Source: a virus (taxonomy: Duplodnaviria > Heunggongvirae > Uroviricota > Caudoviricetes). Taken from it: DNA of 29,172 nucleotides. This document shows positions 2,764 through 26,256 of this stretch, piece by piece (position 1 is the stretch's first letter; each line of letters opens with the position of its first letter). The notes beneath the pieces were generated by a model. That model was not told where the DNA came from and did not search any database. It saw only the letters and a program-made list of their open reading frames with translations. A program made the translations under genes and the position numbers. The DNA is taken from IMG/VR virus record IMGVR_UViG_3300021399_000107, positions 1 to 29,172 of that record; one strand, 5' to 3'.

Positions 2764-3189
2764 TTACGCGGTCTTGATAGAATAGGTCAGGGGATTCTTA
2801 CCGTTGTCGTGCCTGACAAGCTCATCGCGCATATCGTGCGACAGAATGTAGGAGACTTCGTTGCGGTTCATCGCGCAAACATTGGCAACCTTATCGGTAA
2901 TCTCCTGCGCGGTCAGAGGAATGTTGGAGCTGGACAGGGCCGCGAGAATGGCGGGGCGGCGCTCGGCCATGACAACGGCACGCTTCTCGGCGCGCTTTTC
3001 ACGCTCGCGTTCGGTCTTAGCCGGGCTCTTGGTGTGCGCCTGAACAGCATCGTACAGAACCTTGAGAACACTGGTACGGTCAACCTCATGTTCCAGACCG
3101 CTCACCTTGAAGGTGGCATCAGCAGGCATGGCGGAAATCTGAGCGATAGCAACACGGATAGCATCGGCCTGAGTGAGAATGTTCTTCAT
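2764..3189 (-). CDS. Coiled-coil plus winged-helix-like protein (paralog family A)
   Basis: Start reassigned to MKNILT behind promoter/RBS; C-terminal PLTAQEI...VSYIL...GKNPLTY shared with 10825 and 12671 ORFs. Confidence 0.75.
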   Translation of the reverse strand: MKNILTQADAIRVAIAQISAMPADATFKVSGLEHEVDRTSVLKVLYDAVQAHTKSPAKTEREREKRAEKRAVVMAERRPAILAALSSSNIPLTAQEITDKVANVCAMNRNEVSYILSHDMRDELVRHDNGKNPLTYSIKTA

Positions 3190-3374
3190 AATGTGGTGTC
3201 CTTTCTGGTTTGGTGGGTGTCCTTCCCATTCGCTTTCTCGTTCCTTCCCTCGGAACAATTATATAATACCACATGGGCGCGAAAAAGTCAATAGGGAAGA
3301 TTGTAAAGAGTTGGTTAAGTTGCGGGCCGGCTTTCGATTTAACAAAAGGTTAAAAAAAGAGCGTTTGAGCGCTC

Positions 3375-10824: not shown

Positions 10825-11154
10825 TTACAGGCAATAGGTGTTCGCGCCCTTGCCGCTATCGTCCTTCTTCACCTTGTCCGCAAGCTGATGCAGAAGCAGA
10901 TACTGAACCTTATTCTGCGTGAAGTCATCGGGCAGGTCGGCCGCGCAAGCCTCGTAAATTTCCTTGGCGGTCATGGGCTTGTCCGACATAGCCGCAAGCA
11001 CAATAGGCGCGGCAGTGGCATACTTGTCCGCATTGGCGCGAGCCTTAGCGGTCATGTGGTCAAGCTCGCCCTGAAGCTCGTCGCGCAGAGCAGCAGTATC
11101 AACATCAGCGCCGTTCAGGTAAGCAATCATGGTCTCGATGGTGTTCTTCTTCAT
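10825..11154 (-). CDS. Coiled-coil plus winged-helix-like protein (paralog family A)
   Basis: KPMTAKEIY...KVQYLL...GKGANTY. Confidence 0.8.
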   Translation of the reverse strand: MKKNTIETMIAYLNGADVDTAALRDELQGELDHMTAKARANADKYATAAPIVLAAMSDKPMTAKEIYEACAADLPDDFTQNKVQYLLLHQLADKVKKDDSGKGANTYCL

Positions 11155-11256
11155 AAGGCAAATCCTTCTTTCTGGTTTGGTGGGTTTTCCTTCCCTTTTC
11201 TGTATTTATTATAACAGATTCTCACTTGGAAGTCAAGTTAAGATTCTGTTACAAAC

Positions 11257-11375
11257 TGGCGGGACGCGGAGGAATTGAACCTCGTTCCTTGCGGAACCGC
11301 TCTGCTTTTGCACTGAGCTACGTAATCGTCTTTCGACTTACCACGGCGGCTACCCTGATGCCGCTTTCGCGCCCC
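11257..11375 (-). ncRNA. tRNA-like non-coding RNA (about 119 nt) with CCA end but no anticodon loop
   Basis: GGGGCGC/GCGTCCC acceptor stem + G-CCA, T-arm GAGG-TTCAATT-CCTC, D-arm-like TAGCTCAG..AGAGC, extra hairpins; own promoter 11417-11389; no RBS/ORF. Confidence 0.8.
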
Positions 11376-11505
11376 TCATTACGATAATAGTATAGCAGAA
11401 AATGCGCGAAAAGTCAATCATTATGTGTGTAAAGAATTGGTTAAATGTGCGGCCGGCCTGGGATTTAACTTTTATTTAATAAATAAAAAACGGGGCTGAG
11501 CCCCG

Positions 11506-12670: not shown

Positions 12671-13006
12671 TCAATACTTCGCCGTATAGGTCATCGGGTT
12701 CTTACCGTTCATATGACGTTCCACGTTGTCTGCCCACAGGGCGCGCAGACCGTACCGAATCTTCTCAACCGTGAAGCCAGCGGGCCACTGGTCAGACCCC
12801 TCGAATAGCTGTTCGGCCGTCTGCGGCACATCCGACAGCAGATTGCACAGGACTTCCTTAGCCTGCTCATAGGCGTCTGTCTTGGCCTGCGACTTGGCGA
12901 GCATCTTGTACCATTCGGCATTGATTTCGTTGCGCAGGGTGTCCATGTCCGCAACAGGCTGACCATTGACCATCGCGACAACCATCTCAAAAACATTCTT
13001 CTTCAT
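12671..13006 (-). CDS. Coiled-coil plus winged-helix-like protein (paralog family A)
   Basis: Start MKKNVF; collinear with the 10825 ORF over its whole length. Confidence 0.8.
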   Translation of the reverse strand: MKKNVFEMVVAMVNGQPVADMDTLRNEINAEWYKMLAKSQAKTDAYEQAKEVLCNLLSDVPQTAEQLFEGSDQWPAGFTVEKIRYGLRALWADNVERHMNGKNPMTYTAKY

Positions 13007-13171
13007 AGGGCTTTCTTCCTTTCCGGTTTGAAGGGTTTTCCTTCCCTTGATTACGTACATATTATAGCATGAGCGCGCATGAAAGTCAATAACTGGGGAT
13101 GTTAAATAGGAGTAAACTTGTGCGCCGGCCTTTAATTTAACATAATATTTACAAAATGAAATAAGGGCGCT

Positions 13172-24105: not shown

Positions 24106-24274
24106 GTCGTTGCCCCCTTTCACTGTAACCATTATAGCACTTTTGCCCCTGCCTGTCAATAGCAAATCGAAATCTTAATAATTGTAACAAAAATGACATA
24201 ATTCATATTTATGCACTTTCCTGCATAAATATGCAGATGAAAATACTTATAGATGCAGAAATAAGTATCCGCGC

Positions 24275-24530
24275 GGTTAGAATAGTCTAACTGATCTTAT
24301 GACATAATAAATATTCGCTTGTTTGCCGCGCCTAACCGTTATCGTATTATAAGGATCAGTTAGACATAACTAACCGCAAAATACTTATTTTTGCATAATG
24401 ATCAGTTAGTCATAACTAACTTTGCCGCTTTAGTGTGCTAAAGTAGGTAGTTAGTCATAACTAACTGGGACGCGCTTTGGTGCTTTAGCACGCTAAAGCG
24501 CCGGCGGAGGTTAGTTAGTCATAACTAACT
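24275..24530. promoter_or_regulatory. Cluster of five palindromes GTTAG-N6-CTAAC, interleaved with two CTTTAG-N4-CTAAAG
   Basis: Copies at 24275, 24358, 24404, 24449 and 24513; outliers at 1942 and 25951. Confidence 0.8.
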
Positions 24531-24545
24531 GAGACGACGTTGGAT

Positions 24546-25800
24546 GTTAAATTTACGTTAATTTGCTGGCCGGCTCTCCTTTTAACACATATTTAACACC
24601 ATCGGCGCGCTGATTGGTCTTAACCTAAGCGCAACCTTTTCTTTCGACAAACTTAACATAAAGCCGCCCGGGCCGACTTAACGCAGCTTGCGCCTTTTCT
24701 TAACCAAAACTTAACATTCGCTTCGCTTTCAGCTCGCTTTTTCTTAACCTAAATTTAACATTGCTTGGTGCGTCCCAGCTCGCGGTGGCGTTTTAACATA
24801 AATTTAACACAGCCGTTACCAGCTTGCCACCGGAATTTAACGTAAATTTAACACAACTCGTTCAGCTTGCCAGCGCGTTAAAAAAATGTTAAATGCAGCT
24901 CGCCTCCGCGTTAAATAGGCCCCAGTGTTAAAAACAGGTTAAATTTTGGTAAAGCGGATGTTAAGTTTTTGTTAAGTTAAGGCGGAGCTCAAATTTACAT
25001 AGATTTAATAAAGATTTAACAAACATTTAACTTGACAAACTTCTTATACCGGAGCAAAAATTAACAAAAATTTAACATAACATAAATTTAACAGAAAGGC
25101 CATAAATGTTAAATTTAACAATTGTGGTTAACCTAAACTTAACACAAGAGTGTTAAGTTTAGGTTAAGTGTTAAGTTTGTGTTAAGTTTGTGTTAAGATC
25201 AGGTTAAGTCTGTGTTAAATGTTAAGAATATGTTAAACGTTTGTGTTAAGTCTGTGTTAAATGTTAAGTTTAGGTTAAGTGTCTGTGTTAAGTTTTGGTT
25301 AAGCGTTAAGTTTAGGTTAAGTGCTTATGTTAAGTTTACGTTAAGTGTTAAGCTTGTGTTAAGTTTAGGTTAAAAAAACGAACACCAGGTTAAGTTTGTG
25401 TTAAGTTTGTGTTAAGTGTTAAACCCAGGTTAAAAGCACCTCCGCCCGAATGTTAAGTTTAGGTTAAGTGTTAAATGTGTGTTAAATGTTTGTTAAATGC
25501 AGGTTAAAGGTTAAATGTTTGTTAAATTTTTGTTCAGTGTTAAAAATGTGTTAAATGTTTGTTAAGAATGTTAAATGTTAAAAATATGTTAAAAGTTTGT
25601 TAAGTTTGTTAAGTGTTAAATGTTTGTTAAATGTTTGTTAAAAATGTTAAGTGTTAAAAGTGTGTTAAATTTTTATGAAAAATGTTAAATGTTAAATCTT
25701 TGTTAAATTTTGATGACGATTGTTAAATGTTAAATTTTTATGAAATTTTTGTGACATTTGTTAAATATTAAATTTCTGTGAATTTTTTGTTACAAAAATT
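24546..25800. repeat. Dense array of TTAAC/GTTAA arm motifs at 11-bp (and 7-bp) spacing with polarity switch at about 25148
   Basis: Mostly TTAAC left of a perfect 18-bp inverted repeat (25128-25145 / 25150-25167), essentially only GTTAA right of it, decaying into an AT-rich tract. Confidence 0.92.
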
Positions 25801-26256
25801 TAATATTAAATTTTTGTAACATTTTTAATAAAAATTTAATATTTCGGTTAGTGATGTCGAATACTTATATGAGCAGAATAGTAAAGGAACAAAACTATTA
25901 TGCAAGCAGAATAGTGAATACAGCAAACTATTATACTGTCAGAAGGATCATGTTAGCTGTCTCTAACTGCTATGACGTCATAAAAGTAAAGAGACTAAAT
26001 TATTATGCGTCTGTAATAGTGTAATGAGTAAACTATTATAGTCTCGCAAGAGTTTGACGTTGCTAACACTTGTATGCACATATGTATATACAAGACTGTA
26101 TAATGCTGTATATACATGTATGTATATACATGAAAAAATGGAATGGGTATCATGAAAAAAAAGAATGGAAAAAACTATTGACAAAAACGCGCCACGGGTG
26201 TATTATACGCATGTACCGCGGGCGGGAAAAGCCGCCGGGTTAAAGGAGACTTAACA

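Follow-up and report, generated by a model that had tools for sequence, protein, structure and literature searches.

A phage family of tRNA-derived RNAs with an inserted arm, a cysteine-type anticodon loop and three kinds of acceptor end

What is the 119-nt tRNA-like RNA that stands as a cassette of its own in this phage genome, and what might the phage gain from it? The stretch analysed here (the window, 29,172 nt) opens a phage record of 165,344 nt (G000) and covers its first 29 kb. Small minus-strand genes are arrayed along it, many of them behind a sigma-70 promoter of their own; promoter-like sites number 84, where 43 would be expected, and terminator-like sites 60, where 21 would. An earlier note on this DNA had proposed a tRNA mimic, neither a tmRNA nor an ordinary tRNA, and its account of the minus-strand letters at 11375-11257, of the encoded CCA and the T-loop UUCAAUU, and of a TTGACT-17-TATACT promoter at 11417-11389 was exact. 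The proposal itself is borne out by covariation, by the lack of any ARAGORN or Rfam match and by a promoter-RNA-promoter layout that recurs in other contigs, and several of the arms are renamed here (Table 1).

Table 1. Positions of the tRNA-like RNA, its parts and its neighbours in the window
Feature	Position	Strand	Basis or remark
tRNA-like RNA gene, 119 nt	11257..11375	-	fold z -5.36; family of 27 distinct sequences
Acceptor stem, 5' strand, 8 bp; G3-C70 and G4-U69 in the window's RNA	11368..11375	-	5/8 pairs change on both sides in the family
Hairpin 1, D-arm analogue, 5 bp, loop AUCAGGGNA	11346..11364	-	loop in 23/23; 100% paired; 3/5 pairs compensated
Hairpin 2, inserted arm: internal loop GGUAR/GAU, short inner stem, GNRA tetraloop	11321..11345	-	family comparison
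Hairpin 3, anticodon position: 4 bp, 12-nt loop with U-GCA-AA at 11312-11307	11299..11318	-	URCAAA in 23/23
Hairpin 4, variable-arm position: 5 bp, GCAA loop not conserved	11284..11297	-	abuts the T-stem like the V-arm of 8/4 allo-tRNAs
T-arm, 4 bp, loop UUCAAUU	11269..11283	-	2/4 pairs compensated
Acceptor 3' strand, discriminator G73 (11260), encoded CCA	11257..11268	-	sequence
Predicted 5' leader, about 7 nt, putatively removed by RNase P	11376..11382	-	promoter spacing
Sigma-70-type promoter TTGACT-17-TATACT	11389..11417	-	10/12 consensus; ends 13 nt before G1
Next cassette: promoter and 109-aa predicted winged-helix gene	10825..11236	-	promoter starts 20 nt past CCA
Winged-helix-type paralogues, predicted long helix and winged-helix end	10825-11154, 12671-13060, 2764-3258		three in the window

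The 119-nt RNA is real, conserved and derived from a tRNA. Its predicted fold (-53.6 kcal/mol, z -5.36) is matched by none of 200 shuffled sequences, and the stem pairs have probabilities of 0.91-1.0, except for a three-pair mini-hairpin inside arm 3 (0.73-0.85). Neither ARAGORN nor Rfam, the check that the earlier note had named, gave a confident tRNA or family match for the 119-nt RNA, and the family is absent from Rfam 15; genes of this type are overlooked by tRNA finders and Rfam.

Relatives of the phage were chosen by its sigma-factor gene (18 loci), and 15 of these loci together with contig L001 were searched for CCA-ending T-arms, among which an RNA of G001 shares the hairpin-1 loop and the T-loop with the window's RNA. 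Patterns built on hairpin 1 then yielded 2 members among 19 viral matches and 19 members among 36 metagenome matches, and a pattern that ignores hairpin 1 yielded 13 members, 11 of them new, among 55 viral matches; the remainder (17 of 19; 17 of 36, namely 16 chance matches and a truncated copy, L207; 42 of 55) was dropped before counting. Counting contigs that were found twice, the family thus collected has 37 occurrences; these reduce to 27 distinct sequences, 112-159 nt in length. Four of these are long (159 nt), with about 40 extra nucleotides, and keep UGCA but lose the AAA of the URCAAA loop at the anticodon position. The two routes of collection agree reciprocally: the 11 short members found via hairpin 1 all have URCAAA, and the 11 found via URCAAA all have the hairpin-1 loop. 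A covariance model of the family (R1) scores the window's RNA, which belongs to its training set, at 113 bits, with one copy in this genome and one full copy in each carrier genome. Across 13 records picked by the sigma-factor gene, full members occur in 3, a weak 84-nt relative in 1 and none in one 98%-complete record. This relative (L341:1501-1584, in G006; E 1.5e-6) shares the 8/4 branch and the T-loop with the family, and its D-type loop is similar; it has a single middle arm, bearing UACAA, and no inserted arm, and is possibly an intermediate form.

Among the sequences searched, phage and metagenome contigs alone contained the family. Exact 5' and 3' patterns had 0 matches each in viral contigs, and of the 91 INPHARED phage records matched by blastn, none reached 80% coverage of the query; the listed 20 matches were of promoter length only. 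Scans of GTDB genomes returned 12 and 20 matches, none a family member, and model R1 found none in bacterial genomes (0/3 and 0/151, the latter of the order of one Ruminococcus genome and run without a positive control). Patterns built on the hairpin that had been taken for the D-arm hit at least 120 loci and 10 loci, all ordinary or degenerate tRNAs. The 8,495 candidates of Fremin et al. 2023 (PMC10690425) may include the family; six supplementary files of that study, searched for it, contained no match.

The covariation analysis used an alignment of the 23 short members (A1), with the 4 long ones excluded; hairpin 3 and the outer part of hairpin 2, misaligned by MAFFT, were excluded from the pair count. 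In this alignment, 94.6% of the cells are paired and 13 of 24 pairs change on both sides, counts that overstate the number of independent events because the members are related. The covariation score is 0.50, compared with 0.27 for shuffled alignments and at most 0.19 for slid partners, and hairpin 4 is 73% paired, a value lowered partly by misalignment. RNAalifold, an independent check, counts 15 of 26 pairs as compensated. Identity between the window's RNA and the other members is 56-73%; compared with L263, where 9 of 30 pairs differ, all 9 still pair. Judged by these patterns of substitution, the RNA is under selection as a structure; the relatives with compensatory changes to which the earlier note had pointed as a check are thus at hand. 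At the strain level the signal is weak: none of 58 differences from L219 over 1539 nt (p 0.02) and none of 35 substitutions in X5 over 814 nt (p ~0.006) fall in the RNA, but L219 has another invariant stretch of ~330 nt, and in the low-depth contig X2 (depth 2.4) a change breaks a hairpin-1 pair. A decaying pseudogene or a chance fold with no function is accordingly most improbable, since it is largely refuted by compensatory change at such identities and sits poorly with the unchanged RNA in L219 and X5, for all that the gene is absent from some relatives and truncated in one (L207).

The family also shows what each arm is. Hairpin 1 begins 3 nt after the 5' strand of the acceptor stem and is identified with the D-arm because no other conserved feature supplies the GG that, in a tRNA, the D-loop offers to the T-loop; the G run of its loop would contact the T-loop in a predicted elbow. 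The two extra hairpins described previously are therefore reduced to one, with hairpin 2 as the only true insertion. The internal-loop motif of this arm is present in 23/23 short members and its GNRA cap in 22/23, and the inner stem is 100% paired, with compensation in 2/3 pairs; such conservation of the internal loop and the cap suggests that the arm may dock by tertiary contacts. The internal loop presumably resembles the UAA/GAN motif; a literature search for this motif returned no paper with the term.

Hairpin 3, which had been labelled D-arm-like, has the UAGCUCAG opener in only 1/23 members and bears the U-R-C-A-A-A loop in 23/23. This is the pattern of the tRNA-Cys anticodon loop, with GCA in 13 short members and ACA in 10, and 11 of the 23 members with URCAAA came from patterns without that motif. 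The loop around it measures 6-16 nt, with 7 nt in 1/23 (L298), under constrained folding. Hairpin 4, previously seen as an anticodon arm capped by a GNRA tetraloop, has such a loop in 3 of the 22 members in which the hairpin was called and is the variable arm. Likewise, the acceptor/T branch is not 7/5 but 8/4. The T-loop is invariant in A1, although most search patterns and the collecting script demanded that loop.

Compared with a canonical tRNA, the window's RNA has the 12-bp acceptor/T branch, the T-loop and the NCCA end (8+4 bp, UUCAAUU, G-CCA), but where a 5-bp anticodon stem and a 7-nt loop would follow straight on the D-arm, it has 4 bp and a 12-nt loop, preceded by the inserted arm. 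Taken strictly, the description of the RNA as anticodon-less does not hold; a cysteine-type loop is kept at the anticodon position, and a label of this kind taken from a single sequence can mislead. Similarly, the statement that the RNA cannot decode is likely correct for a reason other than the one given, in that an anticodon-type loop survives on a non-canonical arm. Decoding appears improbable given the extra arm between the D and anticodon positions and the loops of other than 7 nt. Two other readings of hairpin 3 were rejected. The loop cannot be taken as an alanine anticodon (UGC), because the would-be U33 is U in only 16/23 members, and a pseudoknot between the URCAAA loop and the 3' trailer is possible in the window's RNA and some members without CCA (type B, below) and is not conserved; the type-B trailer pairs with the leader, which speaks against the pseudoknot there. 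Across the sequences compared, the conserved core consists of the D-type loop, the inserted arm, the U-R-C-A-A-A loop, the T-loop and the 12-bp acceptor/T stack, and it is joined to three different ends.

The closest likeness of this core is with the 8/4 allo-tRNAs, which carry G73 with a long V-arm, or G3-U70, together with non-matching anticodons (Mukai et al. 2017, PMC5389517). Both groups have an 8-bp acceptor stem, a 4-bp T-stem and a V-arm adjoining the T-stem. In the family, the 8/4 branch is present in 27/27 sequences, a layout that the collecting script demanded, and both helices covary; the identity features recur as well, with G73 and a 5-bp arm at the V position in the window's RNA and G3-U70/A73 in 12/23 short members. 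Rows of the table of Mukai et al. bear the same T-arm and acceptor-end letters, in G73 and in G3U70 types, and some have a GCA anticodon, whereas the D-loop motif of the family occurs in no row (PMC5389517). The differences lie mainly in the middle of the molecule. Allo-tRNAs have a long D-stem with a tetraloop; the D-stem of the family has 5 bp, with one more A-U pair at P 0.22, and its loop 9 nt. Allo-tRNAs form a cloverleaf with a canonical anticodon arm, whereas in the family an extra arm lies between the D and anticodon positions in 23/23 short members, and the anticodon arm has 3-5 bp and a loop of 6-16 nt, of 7 nt in 1/23. The family sequences are also 112-159 nt long and include a form without CCA that has a long closing stem. 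Judged by likeness, not by a tree, the family is most simply read as descending from an 8/4 allo-tRNA that gained one arm, and this origin is likely. A further match of model R1, in L274 (L274:2755-2849), is an 8/4 tRNA whose V-arm end is similar; this gene and one in L287, both on viral contigs, are allo-tRNA-like, with a UGA anticodon.

Could the RNA then still act as an allo-tRNA, charged with serine (G73 and the variable arm) or alanine (G3-U70), that reads cysteine codons and causes mistranslation or rescues stalled cysteine codons? GCA and ACA both correspond to cysteine codons, and the loop of L298 has 7 nt. Moreover, 8/4 forms with serine or alanine marks and non-matching anticodons are active missense suppressors in E. 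coli, some allo-tRNAs translate (PMC5389517), and hairpins at the V-arm tip are tolerated (PMC7590224). The extra arm of the family, however, is between the D and anticodon arms and not at the V-arm tip, the 7-nt loop is confined to 1/23 members, the UGC of the window's RNA can pair with the following GCA (P 0.73-0.85), and ten members lack CCA and have a sealed end; six irregular allo-tRNA-UAU species with altered junctions did not translate (PMC5389517). We therefore regard active decoding of this kind as unlikely.

The acceptor end is where the members diverge. Full alanine marks (G1-C72, G2-C71, G3-U70 and A73) are found in 16/27 sequences, 15 of these 16 with an encoded CCA. Among the 23 short members, 12 have G3-U70 and A73; 10 (type B) have G73 without CCA, and ACA in the anticodon-type loop; and the window's RNA has G73 with CCA. 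The type-B acceptor helix is prolonged by 15-19 pairs (judged from folds of 8 of the 10), and 8 of the 15 consensus pairs of this extension show compensation. The end of the window's RNA, which is common to L219, is the only CCA end without alanine marks (G3-C70, G4-U69, G73); in the tree of the RNA, drawn with a midpoint root for display only, this RNA groups with the alanine-type members (support 100/99). A purine occupies position 73 in all members, and U73 occurs in none; a purine there suits RNase P. A G4-U69 pair is charged by human AlaRS and is not known to be charged by bacterial AlaRS; a literature search for G4-U69 alanylation found no paper. SerRS reads G73 together with the V-arm, and CysRS needs U73 (PMC5389517). 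Because the core is constant while the acceptor end varies, amino-acid charging is unlikely to be the shared function, and because 16/27 members keep the full alanine marks, it probably matters in at least those.

The alanine marks bring to mind a message-less tmRNA, alanine-charged and binding EF-Tu and SmpB, that would block or replace the ribosome rescue of the host. A TLD-only tmRNA is on record in mycobacteriophage DS6A, and such a molecule inhibits tmRNA (PMC4131195, PMC11915505); like the family, with its alanine marks in 16/27 members, it is a phage tRNA-like RNA without a message. The window's RNA and the 10 type-B members, in contrast, lack G3-U70 and A73, no tmRNA model match or tag reading frame was found in the window's RNA, and the SmpB gene is absent in 5/5 carrier phages. 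The D-loop of tmRNA has no stem, whereas the family has a 5-bp D-stem that is 100% paired, four internal arms and the 8/4 branch. This function is improbable, slightly more so than decoding.

Alternatively, the RNA could be a donor of alanine or serine for non-ribosomal transfer to the cell wall or lipid. Staphylococci have a non-decoding tRNA-Gly for non-ribosomal transfer, and cell-wall transferases of Bacillota use Ala- and Ser-tRNA; the alternation of Ala-type and G73/V-arm ends in the family would be in keeping with such a role. Nevertheless, Pfam matches of the 171 ORFs of the phage include no such transferase, type B has no CCA, and the conserved loops are left unexplained, so that we give this possibility little credence. 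Even less likely is an uncharged-tRNA mimic that acts on T-box riboswitches or Rel and turns on amino-acid genes of the host or damps the stringent response, an idea that was among those of the earlier note and that found little support. The elbow, the anticodon-type loop and, in the window's RNA, a CCA end without a clear synthetase identity fit it. Cysteine T-boxes, however, read U73, which no member has; most CCA-bearing members look chargeable with alanine, which would switch a T-box off; and the extra arm alters the distance from elbow to anticodon.

The genomic setting bears on whether the RNA acts by itself. Some family members follow a promoter of their own, others close a transcript and are followed by a terminator-like hairpin, and others lie within tRNA clusters; given these settings the RNA looks like a free RNA. 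The promoter-RNA-promoter layout is the same in L219, L245, L263, L277 and L293; L219 has the same RNA as the window behind a different promoter, with the junction at 11382. The same RNA as in the window also occurs in contigs from animal-gut runs, sheep and cattle gut included. Contigs from the RNA runs X7 and X20 span the downstream gene and not the RNA; contigs of this kind indicate presence only and are neutral with regard to expression. At the locus in the window, no terminator-like site was found between the RNA and the next promoter, and a winged-helix gene is present in the fetched flank of 10/12 short alanine-type members. Both observations favour a cis-acting processing or stabilising tag, at which cuts by RNase P and 3' enzymes would define where adjacent mRNAs or tRNAs end. 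The winged-helix gene, however, changes sides (upstream or downstream) from locus to locus, the window contains three paralogues of it, and none of the type-B and long members tested has it as a neighbour; the next gene in the window carries a promoter of its own, and neither a conserved inserted arm nor a URCAAA loop would be required in a cutting signal. A tag of this type is about as improbable as the message-less tmRNA. The winged-helix protein was also considered as a partner of the RNA and rejected: its structure model (pLDDT 95) has only weak, generic fold matches, its 42 relatives form no clear Pfam family, and with several copies per genome it is a frequent neighbour only. In L001 (L001:9785-9895) the slot before the winged-helix gene holds another short non-coding cassette, with an 11-bp closing stem and no T-arm.

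Two other kinds of tRNA-like RNA invite comparison. RNA C and RNA D of phage T4 (rnaC, rnaD; AF158101) are stable RNAs of 139 and 119 nt from the tRNA region, with no assigned function (PMC9697503, PMC3014915). RNA C resembles the family in having a T-arm before the 3' stem. The arm layout of the T4 RNAs differs from that of the family, they are expressed late, whereas the family RNA is within an array of host-type promoters, and model R1 had no match to them at E 0.1 (L176), so that the two are not homologous; the family is of the same broad kind. The T4 RNAs have been known for decades with no function assigned to them, and the variants of the family make the question testable. YrlA RNAs, which include a tRNA-mimic module with D- and T-like arms and occur in some phages, are permuted (T arm before D arm), start with GNCGAA and adjoin Ro60 (PMC4201824). 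The family, in contrast, has the D-like arm first and then the T-arm and ends in the acceptor stem; a Ro60/TROVE gene was found within 4 kb in none of the 5 carrier genomes that are at least 90% complete, where the control was positive in 2/14, and GNCGAAN0-1G is absent near the 5' end, its letters occurring in just 2/23 members and, in the window's RNA, inside the hairpin-2 cap. The suggestion of a Y-RNA-like species thus failed on gene, motif and order alike.

We favour, tentatively, the view that the RNA is a stable decoy that does not decode, probably derived from an 8/4 allo-tRNA and aimed at a host protein by which tRNA is attacked or read; of the functions suggested in the earlier note, a decoy fits best. 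The strong host-type promoter would drive early transcription by the host polymerase, RNase P and 3' trimming would release the RNA as they do a tRNA, the tRNA shape would stabilise it, and the D/T elbow with the anticodon-type loop would be the bait, taken by a defence enzyme that cuts tRNA or by a comparable protein that binds it. Among the genes of the phage is one for a T4-type RNA ligase, next to that of an AAA_33 kinase; such a ligase is present in only 2/11 related records. Phage tRNAs defeat the PARIS, Septu and retron defences by resistance or excess (PMC13728456). Titles and abstracts of the literature contained no report of a non-decoding tRNA mimic as an anti-defence decoy, and a literature search for a phage-defence toxin that cuts tRNA-Cys found none. 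Some observations count against bait of this kind. To our knowledge the ACA anticodon is largely absent from bacteria, and a close mimic of host tRNA-Cys would not need the ACA found in ten members; furthermore, because the four long members keep UGCA and lose AAA, the URCAAA loop may be structural. More doubtful than the decoy as such is the wider picture of a phage-only family that uses an allo-tRNA chassis for an anti-defence decoy, keeping the extra arm and the tRNA-Cys-type loop while the ends are swapped. The probability that remains beyond the decoy and the alternatives weighed above is left to functions outside this list. If the RNA is a decoy, it would be an RNA-only counter of phages to tRNA-targeting defences and would point to an enzyme directed at tRNA-Cys in gut bacteria. 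In either case, natural variation already separates the parts that are kept (the elbow loops, the inserted arm and URCAAA) from those that are swapped (amino-acid identity and CCA).

Several other unusual RNAs were encountered in this phage and its relatives. Outside the window, at G000:C1:119235-119084 (minus strand; L324:6084-6235), the anticodon loop of a tRNA is split by a 75-nt tRNA-like unit with G3-U70, A73, CCA and an odd T-loop; without the insert, ARAGORN calls a tRNA-Lys(UUU). A unit 78% identical to it is inside the anticodon loop of a different tRNA, by eye of Trp type, in G014 (L162:1650-1724), a phage without the T4-type ligase. The unit looks like a mobile tRNA-shaped insert that tRNA-processing enzymes might excise. 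In G001 (L157:about 581-703), the D-arm of another CCA-ending tRNA-like RNA, of 123 nt and with its own promoter, is normal, and a long, branched arm replaces the anticodon arm; in G018 (L346:1501-1613) a 113-nt tRNA-like RNA with G3-U70 directly follows the 3' end of an apparent tmRNA. In contigs L058, L102 and L110, tRNA bodies whose anticodon arm has collapsed each follow a similar GGAAAGAC hairpin; they perhaps represent another family. Phage G000 itself has few ordinary tRNAs, and at G000:C1:118306-118876 and 29607-44164 it has a ROOL RNA (304 bits) and four group I intron matches, with homing-endonuclease-type genes nearby. Finally, positions 24200-26000 of the window, between divergent gene blocks, form a nearly ORF-free stretch of ~1.8 kb with TTAACA-type repeats and very low GC at 25001-26000, which is possibly an origin or genome-end region.
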